Shown here piece by piece: positions 22,253 to 63,464 of a DNA stretch of 64,000 nucleotides. Below the pieces are notes generated by a model. The model was not told where the DNA came from. It saw nothing but the letters and a program-made list of their open reading frames with translations, and did no database searches. This DNA comes from Nitrospirota bacterium. Its GTDB lineage: Bacteria > Nitrospirota > Thermodesulfovibrionia > Thermodesulfovibrionales > SM23-35. Position 1 is the stretch's first letter. Every line of letters begins with the position of its first letter. The DNA is taken from contig JACUUX010000005.1 in NCBI GenBank assembly GCA_014859105.1, positions 1,759 to 65,758 of the forward strand, given 5' to 3'. A program made the translations under genes and the position numbers.

Positions 22253-22861
22253 ATGCTTCTAATCGGTCGAAAAGCACCGGATTTCACAGCTCCGGCCTAT
22301 CATAAGGGGAAATTCGTTAATTTACAATTATCAGAATATTTCGGGAAATGGATTTTACTTTGTTTTTATCCTGGTGATTTTACATTCGTTTGAGCAACAG
22401 AGCTTTCAGCAGTTGCTGAAAAGTATCCGGAATTTAAAAAGCTAGGGGTAGAAATATTTTCCATGAGTATTGACAGTGTCTTTGTACACAAGATGTGGAA
22501 CGACCATGAGCTGTCAAAAATGGTGAGAGGCGGGGTACCTTTTCCTATGTTGTCTGATACCGGTGGGAAGGTAGGAAGTATTTATGGTATTTACGATGAG
22601 AATGCAGGCGTTGAGACCAGGGGGAGATTCATCATTGATCCGGACGGAATAATTCAGGGATATGAGGTATTAACACCACCGGTGGGACGAAATGTCAGTG
22701 AATCTCTCAGGCAGGTACAGGCATTCCAGTTGGTGCGGAAGAGCAAAGGGACAGAGGCGATTCCTTCAGGGTGGAGACCTGGAAAGATGACATTGAAACC
22801 AGGCCCGGAACTTGTCGGAAATGTCTGGAAGGTATGGAAGACGAAGATGGCATTTGACTGA
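22253..22861 (+). CDS. peroxiredoxin (AhpC/Prx1-like) with in-frame TGA at the peroxidatic Cys position; candidate selenoprotein
   Basis: Track ORFs 22133..22393 and 22463..22861 share one frame. Reading through TGA 22391..22393 gives FYPGDFTFV-U-ATELSAV...SIDSVFVHKMW. ATG 22253 follows an AGGAGG RBS. Confidence 0.7.
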
Positions 22862-23144: not shown

Positions 23145-25871
23145 TTATCTCCGAATGCTTCTCCTCTTCCACCACTTTTCAATCTCAACAGCGAAGAAAA
23201 CAACTGAAGACAGTCCAAAACACAACAATAACTCGGACAACGTAAGGGGGTTTGTTTTGAATATCGGGTTCAGATAAGGCACATATATTGTTGCCAGTTG
23301 AAGCAAGACAGTCAGTATAAATGCACCAATCAATGGCTTGTTAGATAATATCCCCTGTGAATAAAGAGATTCTTTCTCTGACCTGACTGCAAGGACATTG
23401 CCCATCTGACTAAGGCATAATACTGTAAACACCATAGTCTGCCAGTGCGTATTACCTGCATTGATTGCCATCGCCTGAGTAAATATAGAGACAGCACCCA
23501 TAAGAAGACCGACCCAGATTATTTGAATCCACATACCTGTAAATATATTTTCCTGGGGGTCCCTCGGTGGCCTTTTCATAATATCTTTCTCTGCCGGTTC
23601 TGCCGCAAGTGCCAGACCGGGAAGTCCATCTGTAACAAGATTAATCCATAAAATATGGATTGGCAGAAGCGGAAGAGGGAGTCCGAGGAAAGGTGCAAGG
23701 AATATCGTCCATATCTCTCCTGAATTGCTTGTCATAGTATATCTTATAAATTTACGTATATTATCAAATATCCGTCTGCCTTCCCTGACAGCTTTAACAA
23801 TAGTAGCGAAGTTGTCATCCAGTAATATCATGTGTGCTGCTTCTTTTGCCACATCAGTACCTGTAATACCCATCGCCACTCCTATATCCGCCCTTTTCAA
23901 TGCAGGCGCATCATTGACACCGTCTCCTGTCATTGCAACAAACTGCTTCCTGTCCTGAAGTGCCTTGATTATCTTCAACTTCTGTTCAGGTGCTACACGT
24001 GCATAAACTCTTATATCTTCAACCTGTTCCTCGAATTCTTCTAATGGTAATTTCTCAAGCTCCATCCCTGTGATTAGCGCTTTTGAATCATCCTCAATGA
24101 TACTGAGCCTCTTAGCAATTACCCTTGCTGTAATTGGATGATCACCTGTAATCATCACGGGTTTTATCCCCGCAGTTTTACATAATGCTACTGCCTCTTT
24201 AGCTTCTTCTCTTGGAGGGTCCATCATGCCTATAAGCCCTAAGAGGGTAAGCTCTGATTCAATATTTTCAGGTGACATATCATCTGGCAATGCATTCCAG
24301 GTTCTCATTGCAATACACAAAACCCTTAATCCATCAGCAGCCATTCTTTCACCTGCCTGTATTATTTCCAATGGATTGACAGGTTTTATTCCCTCTGCTG
24401 TAAAGATGCCCATTGATCTTTCAATAAGCACATCAATCGCACCCTTTGTGAAGGAAACAAATCCCCCCCTGCCCCCCTTTTCTAAAGGGGGGTGAGGGGG
24501 GATTACATGAAACGTGGTCATACACTTCCTGTCTGAATCAAAGGGTATTTCACTGACCCTTACAAATTTCCTTTCAAGCACTTTTTTATGAAAACCGTTA
24601 TCTTTCGCAATATTATAAAGGGCAATTTCTGTGGGGTCGCCGATGACATTGCCCTGGGCGTCCATATGTGCATCGTTGCTTAAGGCAAGAGCAGTCATCA
24701 GTAAATCATGCGGTGATTGAAATAAGGATGCATGATGCATGATACCAGATGCATTATTTCCTGTATCCTGAGGCTTATATCCGGAATCCTGCACCGTGCA
24801 TCTTAACTCCTGTACCTTGATCATCTTTCCATCCACCCGCAACTCTTCCACCGCCATCTTGTTCAATGTAAGTGTTCCAGTCTTGTCAGAGCATACGTAT
24901 GTGACGGATCCGAGGGTCTCCACCGCAGGGAGTTTTCTTATGAGAGCATTCTGTTTGACCATCTTTTTAGCACCAATTGCAAGAGAAATGGTTACAACCG
25001 CAGGCAGTGCCTCAGGTATTGCTGCAACAGCAAGGGATACGGCTGTGAGAAGCATCAAAAGAGGGGGTTCTCCTCTAAATATTCCTATGCTGAAAACAAT
25101 AGCGCATATGCCCAAAACTGCAATAGCGAGTTTCTGACCAAACCTGGCAAGCCTCTTCTGGAGAGGTGTCTTTACCTCTTTTTCTTCCTGAAGCAAGGTT
25201 GCAATCCTGCCCAGTTCTGTCTCCATACCGGTCATTGCAACAATACCTGTTCCCCGACCATATGTAGCGAATGTTCCCTTATACGCCATGTTTTTCCTGT
25301 CACCGATTGGTAAAAGCTCACCATGCAGTGGCTTAGTATGTTTTTCTATCGGTATGGATTCCCCTGTCAATGCTGCCTCTTCAATTTTTAGCTGAACAGC
25401 CTCCGTAAGCCTCATATCGGCAGGAACAATCTTTCCTGCTTCAAGGATTACAATATCACCCGGAACGACTTGAGATGCAGGGATATTTAAAAGCATCCCA
25501 TCCCTCATTACTGTTGCAATGGGCGCTGCCATTTTTTTAAGGGCGGCCATTGCCTTCTCAGCCCTGTATTCCTGAACAAATCCTATTACGGCGTTTATGA
25601 TGATAATCACCAATATTGCTATGGTATCTGCAAGCTCTCCGATTATTCCTGAGACTATTGCAGCAATCATAAGGACAATAATCATGAAGTCACTGAATTG
25701 ATCAAGGAACATTATGAGAGGGTTTTTCTTCTTTTTTTCTTTTAATATGTTTAGACCATAATGCCCGAGTCTCCTCCTGGCTTCATCACTGGAAAGTCCG
25801 TCCGGCGAAGTTTTTAACTCGCTAAAAATGCTGTCTATATCTTTTTGGTGCCAATGCATATTATTTTTCAT
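23145..25871 (-). CDS. cation-transporting P-type ATPase (P2, Ca2+/Mg2+-type) with two in-frame repeat insertions
   Basis: DKTGTLT, TGES, PEALPAV (TM4), [11 protein letters not shown]. Confidence 0.9.
24470..24514. repeat. 45-nt G6/C6 palindrome inside the ATPase frame
   Basis: AATCCCCCCCTGCCCCCCTTTTCTAAAGGGGGGTGAGGGGGGATT; encodes [15 protein letters not shown]. Confidence 0.85.
24726..24793. repeat. ~70-nt CAGGAT/ATGCATC-rich element inside the ATPase frame
   Basis: Encodes [24 protein letters not shown] related element is present in tgt. Confidence 0.65.
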
Positions 25872-32460: not shown

Positions 32461-32583
32461 TAATACAAACGCATTAAGTAAAATGTCATTGCGAGGAGCG
32501 CTAGCGATGTGGCAATCCCAAAAACGAGATTGCTTCGCTTCGCTCGCAATGACAATGTAAAGATATTAAGTGCGTTTGTATTA
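32461..32583. repeat. ~123-bp element: CATTGCGAGG...GCAATGAC core flanked by 13-17-bp inverted repeats
   Basis: Core is GTCATTGCGAGGAGCGCTAGCGATGTGGCAATCC...GAGATTGCTTCGCTTCGCTCGCAATGAC. Outer inverted repeat is TAATACAAACGCA / TGCGTTTGTATTA. Confidence 0.75.
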
Positions 32584-37290: not shown

Positions 37291-39483
<2,193 letters not shown>

Positions 39484-44472: not shown

Positions 44473-44548
44473 GGGCCCATAGCTCAGCTGGAAGAGCTAC
44501 CGGCTCATAACCGGTTGGTCCCAGGTTCGAGTCCTGGTGGGCCCACCA
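44473..44548 (+). tRNA. tRNA with CAU anticodon (elongator Met or lysidine-modified Ile2)
   Basis: Cloverleaf: acceptor GGGCCCA/TGGGCCC, D stem GCTC/GAGC, anticodon stem ACCGG/CCGGT with loop CTCATAA, T arm CCAGG-TTCGAGT-CCTGG, encoded CCA. Confidence 0.9.
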
Positions 44549-45404: not shown

Positions 45405-45801
45405 AAGTCAGAGCAGGGAAGTGGTCGCTCGGCTTTGATTTTTAATCATAGCCGAGAGGAAAGTCCGAACTCCGCAGGGCAAGGCGCTCCGTAATACGGA
45501 GTGGGGGAAACCCTAAGGAAAGTGCCACAGAAAGGGAAACCGTCCCGACTTTGTCGGAATAAGGGTGAAAAGGTGAGGTAAGAGCTCACCAGTTGGGGTG
45601 GTAACACCTCAAGCTTGGTAAACCCCGCCTGGAGCAAGGTCAAATAGGTTCCGCCTTGAGAAGGGCCCCTTCGAATCCTGACCTGCATAATGGAATCAGG
45701 GAGGCGGAACGGGTAAGGACTGCAAGAGTCTGATGGCAACATAAGACCTTAGATGAATGACCACACATATACAGAACTCGGCTTACAGCCTGCTCTGACT
45801 T
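45405..45801 (+). ncRNA. rnpB: RNase P RNA, bacterial type A
   Basis: P1 pairing AAGTCAGAGCAGG / CCTGCTCTGACTT. Conserved GAGGAAAGTCCG, ACAGAAA, GGTAAGAGCTCACC, GGTAAACCCC and ACAGAACTCGGCTTACAG. Confidence 0.95.
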
Positions 45802-54285: not shown

Positions 54286-55233
54286 ATGCAAAAGATTAAA
54301 ATCGGAATAAGTACTTGTCTTCTCGGCGAAAAAGTCCGGTATGACGGGGAACACAAGCTTGATAGGTACATAACGGATACACTCGGTCATTATTTTGAAT
54401 GGGTTCCGGTATGTCCAGAAGTAGAATATGGTCTTCCTGTGCCGAGAGAATCAATGCATTTAATCGGTGATCCCGCCTCACCTCGTATTGTAACGGTAAA
54501 AACTGGCGTTGACCATACCGAGGGCATGAAAGAATGGGCTGGAGATAAATTAAGACAGCTTGAAAGAGAGGATCTCTGCGGTTTTATTTTCAAGAGTAAG
54601 TCGCCAAGTTCCGGGCTAAGCGGTATAAAAGTCTATACTCCTTCAGGGATGCTAAGAAACAGGGGAACAGGCATATTTGGTGGAGCATTCATGCGTTATT
54701 TTCCACTCATCCCGGTTATAGATAATGGAAGGCTACATAATCCGACCCTGAGAGAAAACTTCATAGAACAGGTCTTTCTATATAAACGATGGAAAGAATT
54801 TCTGAAGAATGGCATCAAAATCAGGGATCTAATTGCATTTCATACTAATCTCAAACTTTTAATATTATCTCATAGCCCAAAACATTACAGTACCCTCGGA
54901 AAACTTGTTGCTCAAGCAAAAAAATATCGGCCTGATGTGCTCTATTCTGAATACATAAGGATATTGATGGAGGGGGTGCGTATTCTTGCCACGATCAAAA
55001 AGAATACAAATGTGTTACTGCATATAGCTGGATATTTCAAAAAACAGCTAACGTTGGAGGACAAAAGGGAATTGCTTGAAGTTATCGAGCAATATCACAA
55101 AGGGTATATACCTTTAATAGTCCCGATAGTCCTTATTAATCACTATTTGAGAAAATTAGATGAATCCTACCTAAAGAATCAATTCTATCTGAATCCTCAT
55201 CCCGTAGAATTAATGCTTAGAAACCATGTTTAA
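54286..55233 (+). CDS. YbgA-like protein (DUF523 plus DUF1722)
   Basis: N-terminal IGISTCLLGEKVRYDG...CPE, with a helical C-terminal half. Confidence 0.7.
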   Translation: MQKIKIGISTCLLGEKVRYDGEHKLDRYITDTLGHYFEWVPVCPEVEYGLPVPRESMHLIGDPASPRIVTVKTGVDHTEGMKEWAGDKLRQLEREDLCGFIFKSKSPSSGLSGIKVYTPSGMLRNRGTGIFGGAFMRYFPLIPVIDNGRLHNPTLRENFIEQVFLYKRWKEFLKNGIKIRDLIAFHTNLKLLILSHSPKHYSTLGKLVAQAKKYRPDVLYSEYIRILMEGVRILATIKKNTNVLLHIAGYFKKQLTLEDKRELLEVIEQYHKGYIPLIVPIVLINHYLRKLDESYLKNQFYLNPHPVELMLRNHV

Positions 55234-55953: not shown

Positions 55954-55988
55954 ATAGATATGGCCGGCATTATGCCGGCCATATCTAT
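55954..55988. terminator. perfect 17-1-17 palindrome just 3' of the lipoprotein gene
   Basis: ATAGATATGGCCGGCAT-T-ATGCCGGCCATATCTAT. Confidence 0.5.
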
Positions 55989-56001: not shown

Positions 56002-56616
56002 CTATTGTATCTGGAAGGATGTTTCCCTGGAGTCGCTTAATGTAGGCCCTTGAACAGTCATGATGACACTATATTTGCCTTTTTTTGCATCCATAGGCAA
56101 CGTTAGAGGAATGCTCGAGGAATAGGTACCGTCGCTGCGTGAAACACTGATCTGAGGTTTGCCGTACATTTCGCCCTCGTATCTGATTTCGCGGGTTTCT
56201 GAGATCTCCAATTCCTTGCCAGGCGCAACACCCAACACCGCATAGGTCATCTTCATCTCTACCTTATCTCCTGGTTTGGCCACAGAAGGGCTGACGGAAA
56301 CGTCTTCGATTCTGATCAGCGTCCCCTCTGATGGCTTGTAGTCATATTGTTGCGCTGTTTCCTCTTTGGTCTTTTTCTTATCATAAGCATAGTGTCCGAT
56401 TGCCCCTCCTGCAAGTGCCCCGAGAAGGCCACCTACCACTGCCATCTCTGTCTTGGCCCCTTCTGAGCCCAATAATGCCCCGGCTACTGCTCCTGTTGCT
56501 GCACCGATTCCAGCTCCGGTTGTTGCGCCCTTGTGTTCTTCAGGAATGGACGCACAGCCAAAAACCCCGATAAGAAACGTCAGAATAACCGCCACGGAAA
56601 TAATTTTTCGATACAT
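56002..56616 (-). CDS. glycine-zipper lipoprotein
   Basis: Lipobox VFGC and Gly-zipper TGAGIGAATGAVAGALLG...GGLLGALAGGAIG. Visibly GC-richer than its surroundings. Confidence 0.7.
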   Translation of the reverse strand: MYRKIISVAVILTFLIGVFGCASIPEEHKGATTGAGIGAATGAVAGALLGSEGAKTEMAVVGGLLGALAGGAIGHYAYDKKKTKEETAQQYDYKPSEGTLIRIEDVSVSPSVAKPGDKVEMKMTYAVLGVAPGKELEISETREIRYEGEMYGKPQISVSRSDGTYSSSIPLTLPMDAKKGKYSVIMTVQGPTLSDSRETSFQIQ

Positions 56617-56651: not shown

Positions 56652-56727
<76 letters not shown>

Positions 56728-62687: not shown

Positions 62688-63416
62688 TCAAGCTGAACTT
62701 CTTAATTTCTCCAGAACCTTCTGTGCATCCTCCCAGGTCCGCCATTTATCTTTTGGGTTCCTGATTAAATAGGCAGGGTGAAATGTCGGCATCAAGAGAA
62801 TACCCTTGTAATCGAAAAATTTGCCACGTATTGATGTTATTTTTAACTTGGGATTTCCTGTAAGGGTTAGTGCTGCTATCCTGCCCAGGGCCATAATTAT
62901 TTTCGGCCTTATTATTTCTATCTGCCTTTCAAGAAAACTCCTGCATTTTTCTATCTCATCTGCTTCAGGCTCCCGATTCATAGGAGGTCTGCATTTAACT
63001 ATGTTTGCAATATATACATCCTCCCTCATGAATCCCATTTTTTCTATGAGCCTAGTGAGCAACATGCCTGCGTCTCCTACAAATGGTTTTGCCTGTAGGT
63101 CCTCTTGCTTACCGGGTGCCTCACCAATAAACATAAGATTTGCATCGGGATTGCCTTCTCCGAAAACTATATTTGTTCTTTGGATTGAAAGCTTGCACCT
63201 CCTGCAATCATTAATCTCTTCTCTCAGTGCTTTCAAGGCTGCCTCTTTAATCCCCCCACACCCCCCTTTAGAAAAGGGGGGTAAGGGGGGATTTTGGTTC
63301 AGAGATTTGACATCTGTAATTTGACTTTTGATTTTTAATTTTATCGGTAGATGTTCAAATCCTAATGCCTGATAAAATTCGAGAATGTTTTTTATTTGCT
63401 CAACAATACTTGCCAT
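62688..63416 (-). CDS. uracil-DNA glycosylase family 4 with an in-frame 45-nt palindrome
   Basis: CRRCKL, GEAPG, FHPAYLIRNP. Start at ATG 63416. Confidence 0.85.
   Translation of the reverse strand: MASIVEQIKNILEFYQALGFEHLPIKLKIKSQITDVKSLNQNPPLPPFSKGGCGGIKEAALKALREEINDCRRCKLSIQRTNIVFGEGNPDANLMFIGEAPGKQEDLQAKPFVGDAGMLLTRLIEKMGFMREDVYIANIVKCRPPMNREPEADEIEKCRSFLERQIEIIRPKIIMALGRIAALTLTGNPKLKITSIRGKFFDYKGILLMPTFHPAYLIRNPKDKWRTWEDAQKVLEKLRSSA
63249..63293. repeat. 45-nt G6/C6 palindrome inside the UDG frame
   Basis: AATCCCCCCACACCCCCCTTTAGAAAAGGGGGGTAAGGGGGGATT; encodes [15 protein letters not shown]. Confidence 0.85.
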
Positions 63417-63464
63417 TCTTAATTTTGAATTTTGAGTTTGAATTTTGAATTTCAAATTTTTTTA

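Follow-up and report, generated by a model that had tools for sequence, protein, structure and literature searches.

In-frame copies of a dispersed 45-nt G6/C6 palindromic repeat in a P-type ATPase and a uracil-DNA glycosylase of a Nitrospirota bacterium

A stretch of 64,000 nucleotides from contig JACUUX010000005.1 of the Nitrospirota bacterium assembly GCA_014859105.1 (hereafter the window) contains two copies of a short palindromic element built from runs of six guanines and six cytosines (the G6/C6 element). One copy is located inside the gene for a P-type ATPase and the other inside the gene for a uracil-DNA glycosylase (UDG). The two copies probably belong to a dispersed family of very short stem-loop repeats that is similar to repetitive extragenic palindromes (REPs) except for the lack of a terminal tag; most copies are intergenic, a minority is read in frame within proteins, and intactness depends on the lineage. 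The family consensus is (A)AAT-C6-N3-C6-TTT-N3-AAA-G6-N3-G6-ATT(T) with a length of about 45–47 nt. The family has apparently not been described so far and occurs in uncultured anaerobic bacteria.

The element and its two host genes

Both copies have the layout AAT-C6-N3-C6-TTT-N3-AAA-G6-N3-G6-ATT and a length of 45 nt, with two arms of 21 nt around a loop of 3 nt (Table 1). The arms are 86% and 90% complementary in the ATPase and UDG copies, respectively, and mismatches appear only in the two N3 spacers, which stay unpaired. The predicted hairpin consists of a stem of 9 + 9 bp with a 3 × 3 internal loop. Predicted stabilities are −35.1 to −37.0 kcal/mol for RNA and about −19 to −21 kcal/mol for DNA, with z values of −3.7 to −5.2, and the hairpin is more stable than 200 of 200 shuffled sequences. 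The string C6-N3-C6 appears five times in the window, always inside the two elements, compared with 0.07 expected from dinucleotide-preserving shuffles, and a count of five was reached in 0 of 100 shuffles. The arm complementarity and the excess of the motif bear out the near-perfect dispersed palindrome described in an earlier reading of the sequence alone (the sequence-only reading). The UDG copy was found where that reading had placed it and is a member of the same repeat family. The ATPase copy had been placed at 24470..24514; the exact 45-nt string is located 10 nt upstream.

Table 1. Coordinates of the G6/C6 element, its host genes and the second repeat family (window positions unless a contig is named)
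Feature	Position	Strand	Details
Host gene 1, Ca2+-type P-type ATPase	23145..25871	-	908 aa; DKTGT, TGDH and GDGVNDAP motifs and five Pfam domains
ATPase insert codons	24459..24503	-	15 codons, aa 457-471; frame B, 1 nt offset from the palindrome
G6/C6 palindromic element, copy 1	24460..24504	.	+ strand: AAT C7 TG C6 TTT TCT AAA G6 TGA G6 ATT
Copy 1, arms	24460-24480 and 24484-24504		
Copy 1, loop	24481-24483		
Copy 1, unpaired spacers	24469-24471 and 24493-24495		
Host gene 2, family-4 uracil-DNA glycosylase	62688..63455	-	PF03167; database protein starts at 63416, 242 aa
UDG insert codons	63293..63249	-	15 aa, in register with the palindrome (frame A); residues 42-56 in the 242-aa numbering
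G6/C6 palindromic element, copy 2	63249..63293	.	+ strand: AAT C6 ACA C6 TTT AGA AAA G6 TAA G6 ATT
Copy 2, arms	63249-63269 and 63273-63293		
Viral copy, IMG/VR contig L253	847-891		
Viral copy, IMG/VR contig L254	1502-1546		
Viral copy, IMG/VR contig L255	4870-4914		
Second repeat family, ATPase copy	24717..24802		ATPase aa ~357-385; 24-aa peptide
Second repeat family, tRNA-guanine transglycosylase (TGT) copy	~38728..38829		Inside TGT ORF 38163..39353 (-)

No Rfam 15 family matched the element at the gathering score; only weak generic hairpin matches were obtained at the element, with at most 26 bits compared with thresholds of 38–100. An intrinsic terminator was considered and rejected, since no terminator-like site was called at either copy and no convergent or 3′-end bias was found.

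The open reading frame (ORF) of the ATPase appears intact, and the element lies within it without breaking the reading frame. The protein is 100% identical to a protein from a metagenome-assembled genome (MAG) labelled 'Nitrospirae bacterium' and matches the Listeria ATPase LMCA1 (9euq) with E = 6e-190. The insert codons are ATC CCC CCT CAC CCC CCT TTA GAA AAG GGG GGC AGG GGG GGA TTT. The corresponding segment of LMCA1 is a turn of five residues (FNENK) that connects two strands in the nucleotide-binding (N) domain. The AlphaFold model of the ATPase is poor overall (mean predicted local distance difference test score, pLDDT, of 56.7) and good in the N domain (80–88), where strands 450–456 and 471–477 border an unstructured segment at residues 457–470, with pLDDT below 50 at 461–467. 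In this model the ATPase copy is predicted to form the disordered tip of an N-domain β-hairpin.

The UDG ORF is intact, and its frame is not interrupted by the element. The copy falls in the variable linker that joins the core (KEAALKALREEI.DC..C) to a conserved helix at the N-terminus (LEFYQALGFExLPI). In the AlphaFold model of UDG (mean pLDDT of 80.7), residues 22–53 are unstructured with pLDDT below 50 and lie between helix 2–17 and helix 54–68; the UDG copy is thus predicted to occupy a disordered linker. In both genes, in-frame reading within an otherwise intact protein, as proposed in the sequence-only reading, holds, the two ORFs being uninterrupted, and both copies fall in loops or linkers that the structure models show as unstructured and with low confidence.

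The element has opposite orientations in the two genes, the loop triplet on the gene strand being AGA in the ATPase and TCT in UDG, and it is read in frames B and A, respectively. Genic copies are mostly read in frame A (NPPxPPFxKGGxGGI) and frame B (IPPxPPLxKGGxGGF). Peptides of the PP..KGG.GG type, which the sequence-only reading had expected from either orientation, were seen in two frames and in both orientations. The runs are not explained by codon preference, since CCC and GGG each make up about 20% of their codon family in the window (20% of the proline codons and 19% of the glycine codons). The scan for the exact pattern fixes the element length at 45 nt, and no length bias is readable from it. 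Without the fixed length, 19 copies were found, and six of these, which are genic, have 43, 44 or 46 nt between AAT and ATT. Of the six genic length variants, four, read closely, switch from frame A to frame B inside the element and use the flanking T. A test for lengths divisible by three is unusable because the 44- and 46-nt variants keep the frame by this internal switch.

Occupied loops and the wider family

The ATPase loop, which lies between the motifs MTTFH and [FY][VI]SFTKG, is hypervariable across orthologs. The two most similar orthologs (77% identity) have FHKWKDGF or HNFRPDI at the loop. The clean gain of 15 residues that had been proposed was not obtained; relative to the short loops of these two orthologs the net gain is about 10 residues. 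Orthologs with the same 15 residues, named beforehand as evidence against a repeat, do exist in the P0021 clade (~72% identity). They share the residues because they carry the same DNA element, and the match is therefore an instance of sharing or recurrence and does not refute the repeat.

The first list of ATPase homologs was visibly biased, because a common insert raises the bit score and the scores lie close together. When both variable loops were deleted from the query, the P0021 clade dropped out of the best 120. Among the best 119 orthologs found with the loop-deleted query, about 37% have short loops (e.g., KWKDG and TWNGG), 50% have other long insertions, 7% have G6/C6-like peptides and 6% have a PPxPPWQGG variant; about 60% of the orthologs thus have an occupied loop. 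Element-bearing orthologs are interspersed with short-loop ones in a neighbor-joining tree whose deep branches are unreliable. Other repeat families also fill the same two ATPase loops. The UDG linker is variable like the ATPase loop and is repeatedly occupied among orthologs. The ATPase loop and the UDG linker are permissive places that have been occupied repeatedly.

Several side observations concern the same loops. Several further repeat-like peptides (KSEETEKLLTLNSQLLTF, SAVSGQQS, ITHHSSLITLF and PPSPPWQGGELRGG) are found repeatedly in the two variable N-domain loops of different ATPase orthologs (P0003, P0009, P0019, P0031, P0099 and others); in P0003 each of the two loops holds a peptide of the G6/C6 type. 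For the ATPase site, target mimicry or microhomology was considered and rejected; three empty sites (TGG AAT GGT GGC TTT, TGG AAC GGT GGC TTT and TGG AAA GAT GGA TTT) lack a G-run half-site. In UDG orthologs P0124, P0137, P0170, P0209 and P0215 the element takes a composite form, in which the inner hairpin or the right arm is duplicated (peptide NPPSPPFSKGGKRGFEKGGQGGI). Composite forms are also present at loci L195:3062-3136, L196:7203-7280 and L173:4609-4764, with the DNA form AAT-C6..G6-ATAATAATT-C6..G6-ATT. The composite forms suggest nesting or tandem duplication of half-elements.

The exact 45-nt pattern was found in at least 120 JGI metagenome contigs. Among 2.9 million viral contigs (IMG/VR) only three exact copies were detected, all in frame inside long ORFs. 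A loose scan of species-representative genomes gave 120 listed matches, most of which are poly-C or poly-G runs in high-GC assemblies. Genuine copies among these matches are in MAGs labelled Nitrospirota, Thermodesulfovibrionia, Syntrophaceae, Deltaproteobacteria, Dehalococcoidia, Geomonas, Nitrospinota and Calditrichaceae, and variant forms were found in Cyanobacteria and Chloroflexota; the bipartite design with unpaired N3 windows thus recurs from Nitrospirota to these two groups.

Among the metagenome copies listed, 36 are genic and 59 are intergenic by crude gene calls, in DNA that is about 88% coding, which corresponds to a copy density about 12-fold higher in intergenic DNA. About 30% of these listed copies are in frame in housekeeping enzymes. 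The listed genic hosts are unrelated, cover 14 enzyme families besides those of the ATPase and UDG, and include CarA, CarB, a MetH-like protein, TatD, a NuoG/Fdh-like protein, FabZ and a GT2 glycosyltransferase, together with ribonucleotide reductase (RNR), CofH/MqnC, TsaD, ferrochelatase, MnmA and PrmC. Genic copies are frequently located between Pfam domains. The contexts of the 59 listed intergenic copies are codirectional (39), convergent (12) and divergent (8), close to the length baseline, and no clear preference for convergent, 3′ or downstream-of-ORF contexts was found among them.

The flanks of 118 loop-oriented copies show A at −1 and T at +1 and contain less than 0.25 bit beyond ±1. 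No target-site duplication was found, direct-repeat flanks being no more common than in permuted controls. The repeated unit is the hairpin itself, because the flanks are uninformative beyond ±1 and no target-site duplication is present. A larger transposable element of the miniature inverted-repeat type (MITE) around the core was considered, since some intergenic copies share flanks, and was rejected on the uninformative flanks of the 118 copies. Subsets of copies have the common flanks ATTTGAAAGTTATTT, ATGAAAAT... or ATTACTnATTTTCAT. In the purine-rich loop orientation, 25% of the 118 copies at loci L121-L240 are directly followed by TGA (ATT TGA), and the mirror TCA appears in only 4%. The shared flanks of some copies would bound a mini-ORF of 19 codons, MK(I/M)SNPPxPPFxKGGxGGI*.

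Intact and decaying copies at orthologous sites

The comparisons of orthologous copies are presented in the order in which they are trusted: UDG of P0122, the four UDG lineages, orthologous-site pairs from the metagenome scan, and the ATPase against the P0021 clade. Outside the element, the closest UDG ortholog (P0122) shows 88% identity and a difference at 35% of the fourfold degenerate sites; its gene neighbors are the same. The copy in P0122 is decayed and stands at exactly this position, with five of the nine variable bases in common with the window copy. All nine departures from the 36 conserved bases are on the P0122 side (9/9). The window UDG lineage shows 0 arm changes compared with 7.2 expected per lineage under neutrality (P = 3e-4), and the two proteins are equidistant from three outgroups.

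The window UDG and its orthologs P0135, P0185 and P0167 have 71–78% protein identity and differ at 52–69% of the fourfold sites. At the fourfold sites within the element, 0 differences at 8–9 sites were observed in the four lineages (P = 8e-5 to 1.5e-3). The insertion site is common to P0135, P0185 and P0167; in each pair the arms are identical at all 36 positions, and the variable spacer and loop bases differ at 2–3 of 9. For the pairs from the metagenome scan only the nine variable bases are unbiased for comparison. The orthologous-site pairs in TatD, CofH and RNR share 8/9, 7/9 and 6/9 of these bases, respectively, compared with about 4 for random pairs, and their host genes differ at 46–55% of the fourfold sites.

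The ATPase copy is identical at 45 of 45 positions to the reconstructed copy of the P0021 clade, the genes being 72% identical with 62% of the fourfold sites different. As proof of an ancient conserved insertion this identity was downgraded, the clade having been lost with the loop-deleted query. Within the P0021 clade the copy drifts at about 0.4 of the fourfold rate, and P0004 has lost 9 nt.

Over these comparisons, copies stay intact in some lineages and decay neutrally in others. The orthologous comparisons, which are few in number, provide evidence for active or selective maintenance of the intact copies. The sequence-only reading had described the element as selfish DNA tolerated inside proteins. 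This description is incomplete in that, at synonymous positions, the intact copies are far more conserved than the genes that hold them.

The explanation proposed for these results is the dispersed, untagged, REP-like family introduced above. Genic copies are filtered: they survive only if they keep the frame and contain no stop, and they are found at permissive sites. Spread may proceed by a hairpin- or single-strand-dependent route that leaves no target-site duplication, as for REPs with their REP-associated tyrosine transposases (RAYT/HUH) or for IS200/IS605, and the mobilizing factor would act in trans and be encoded elsewhere in the genome. Arm intactness could result from selection on the DNA or RNA hairpin or from correction by other copies and might depend on a lineage-specific factor. 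It is conceivable, if rather doubtful, that the hairpin is the cis-element of an unrecognized, widespread system with a trans-acting partner, in which copies at orthologous sites would be kept perfect even in essential genes and over divergences at which synonymous sites are saturated, and loss of the partner would lead to decay.

Several points count against the proposed family. Translation of the insert as a Pro-Pro/Gly-Gly-rich segment of 15 residues is predicted from the sequence. The 45/45 identity with P0021 is open to a look-elsewhere effect, the clade having been listed only through the loop match. No closely related pair of filled and empty sites was found; the boundaries and the insertion event are inferred from orthologs with only 70–77% identity. 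The gene calls on metagenome contigs are crude, stop-to-stop ORFs, and the DNA covered consists of genome fragments, the count for this genome being the two copies in the 64 kb of the window. No transposase or RAYT was detected by Pfam among 30 window ORFs. An approximate IS200 TnpA query was run with phmmer against 6146 ORFs from 1.6 Mb of loci, with matches confined to an unrelated Ruminococcaceae contig. In loci L134 and L003 the genes that separate the paired copies are ordinary.

Among the alternatives, a nucleic-acid signal selected by the host is the best supported and is a possibility of less weight than the proposed family. The hairpin would be a site for nucleoid, topoisomerase or recombination proteins or an RNA stability or pausing hairpin, with the peptide as a by-product. 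This alternative overlaps the proposed explanation and differs on who benefits. The arms frozen at synonymous positions across lineages, the absence of changes in the window UDG copy, the contrast between arms and variable positions in P0135, P0185 and P0167, and the occurrence of the same bipartite C6/G6 design in several phyla would all be expected of such a signal. However, the copies in sister lineages P0122, P0004 and P0091 decay approximately neutrally, genic positions appear haphazard and limited by tolerance, and neither a preferred intergenic context nor a terminator signature nor an Rfam family was found.

It is improbable that intact copies at the same site are independent, recent insertions with a homing-like site preference, in which case an intact copy would simply be young. 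In scattered branches, this and other repeat families have entered the ATPase loop and the UDG linker many times, and the P0021 copy is identical despite the divergence of the gene and drifts almost neutrally inside its clade. In IS200/IS605 elements the DNA inside the element guides target choice, which offers a precedent. However, the empty ATPase sites do not resemble an element end, and the flanks of 119 copies contain no target motif beyond the A and T at ±1. The decayed P0122 copy lies at the same spot and shares variable bases with the window copy; any fresh insertion would need to replace it exactly. In addition, copies at orthologous sites share more variable bases than random copies do.

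It is very improbable that PPxPP...KGGxGG is a selected protein motif, such as an interaction or regulatory loop, with the palindrome incidental: several orthologs do have the peptide at the same loop, but most copies are intergenic, different frames give different peptides in different hosts, conservation extends to third codon positions invisible to the protein, the host proteins are unrelated, the segment is predicted to be disordered, and many orthologs lack it. A sequencing or assembly artifact, either from poly-G/poly-C or from a chimeric join at a repeat, can practically be dismissed: the loose genome scan did give many poly-C/poly-G junk matches at the contig ends of high-GC assemblies, but the element is structured rather than homopolymeric, is internal to long contigs and in frame, and is present, with spacers specific to each site, in independent assemblies of different samples (NCBI, JGI, ENA and Logan).

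Related repeats, other features of the window and significance

The G6/C6 element behaves like REPs and like Rickettsia palindromic elements (RPEs), is a member of neither family, and fits the loose class of untagged stem-loop repeats. The likeness to RPEs that had been noted from the sequence applies to the in-frame behavior: palindromic repeats are found in frame in unrelated, seemingly functional genes, the peptide is placed where it is tolerated, and other copies are intergenic. Membership fails on size and tag. RPEs are about 100–150 bp and about 30–50 aa, form about ten families and are restricted to Rickettsia, whereas the element is 45 nt and 15 aa. The RPE sequences of R. conorii end in CGTC (PMC3733652). 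The element has no CGTC at either end, and its C6/G6 arms are bipartite, divided by an N3 spacer that stays unpaired. Its hosts are free-living uncultured anaerobes of several phyla; the separation from RPEs is drawn from descriptions.

REPs and REPINs are short, G+C-rich, imperfect palindromes that are highly repeated and mainly extragenic, with a minority entirely within ORFs of known proteins and with no target-site duplication. The element has a G+C-rich stem-loop, is abundant across metagenomes and denser between genes, and shows no target-site duplication either. Intragenic REPs with GTAG or CGTC tags were catalogued by Di Nocera et al. 2013, and their hosts include DNA-repair genes (PMC3733652). 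Persistence over millions of years has been reported for REPIN populations (PMC8049555). The element differs in having neither GTAG nor CGTC and in ending AAT...ATT, in its length of 45 nt compared with 20–40 nt for REPs, and in its 9 + 9 bp stem with the internal loop. No preference for positions downstream of ORFs was seen among the listed copies, and no head-to-head dimers are present in the 64-kb window. No RAYT was found near the element in the genome fragments examined, and the intragenic share of about 30% appears high.

MITEs such as Correia/NEMIS, ERIC and RUP are also non-autonomous and can fuse in frame with host ORFs. They are 70–400 bp long and have terminal inverted repeats, and DDE transposases generate their target-site duplications, whereas the whole 45-nt unit of the element is a hairpin and no duplication is present. 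The closest likeness is to the untagged stem-loop repeats, which are very small dispersed hairpins with no terminal tag and no known transposase. The small dispersed repeats of cyanobacteria are 21–27 nt long, and cyanobacterial contigs carry a related C6-N3-C6...G6-N3-G6 variant. Untagged stem-loop families are present in M. tuberculosis, D. radiodurans, Bordetella, Brucella and Cyanobacteria (PMC3733652). In an exact-string full-text search of the literature with the peptides, the DNA half-sites, and REPs in Nitrospirota or Desulfobacterota, no description of the element was found. In-frame palindromic insertion is already known from RPEs and from GTAG/CGTC REPs in free-living bacteria, notably in DNA-repair genes. 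New here are how large and broad the family is, the finding that the same protein loops have been occupied repeatedly, and the evidence for maintained intact copies.

A second, unrelated repeat family (GATGCATGATGCAT... / ...ATCCTGTATCCTG) forms an imperfect inverted repeat and is read in frame in two genes of the window, the ATPase and TGT (Table 1). The TGT copy encodes two 11-aa peptide stretches, and the match of TGT to its Pfam profile exceeds the profile length by about 31 aa. Among ATPase orthologs, a cognate 22-aa peptide appears in either variable loop. A possible decayed third G6/C6 copy is nested in the TGT insertion at ~38757..38800 (...TCCCTCTTTACTAAGAGTGGACAGAGGGGGGGTAT; 12-aa peptide); in an ungapped comparison it departs from the 36 conserved bases at more than 10 positions, and it was not counted as a copy.

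Two further inverted repeats are present in the window. At 32479..32559 the arms TAAAATGTCATTGCGAG and CTCGCAATGACAATGTA are separated by 47 nt and possibly represent another dispersed repeat family. A perfect palindrome of 17 + 17 nt with a 1-nt center (ATAGATATGGCCGGCAT / ATGCCGGCCATATCTAT) is located at 55954..55988, in an apparent gap between ORFs 54286..55233 and 56002..56616 of the crude stop-to-stop list. The Rfam matches at the gathering threshold in the window are RNase P RNA, class A (45409..45801, +; 278.6 bits), and two tRNAs (44473..44545, +, and 56655..56727, -). The mechanical ORF at 45446..45742 (-) falls within the RNase P gene and is unlikely to be real. A peroxiredoxin-like ORF at 22463..22861 (+) matches only the C-terminal half of the AhpC-TSA profile (positions 66–122 of 124), from residue 2 onward; its true start may be upstream, or the gene may be disrupted.

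The decoration of proteins by tiny palindromes, best known from Rickettsia, is common in free-living uncultured bacteria of sediment and groundwater and touches core enzymes. Together with other short repeat families, such elements look like a major source of loop-length variation, as at the ATPase loop. They can mislead annotation through spurious small ORFs, as well as alignment, homology ranking and MAG assembly. The presence of frozen and freely decaying copies at orthologous sites provides a handle on whether REP-like repeats are parasites, domesticated signals or self-maintaining replicators.

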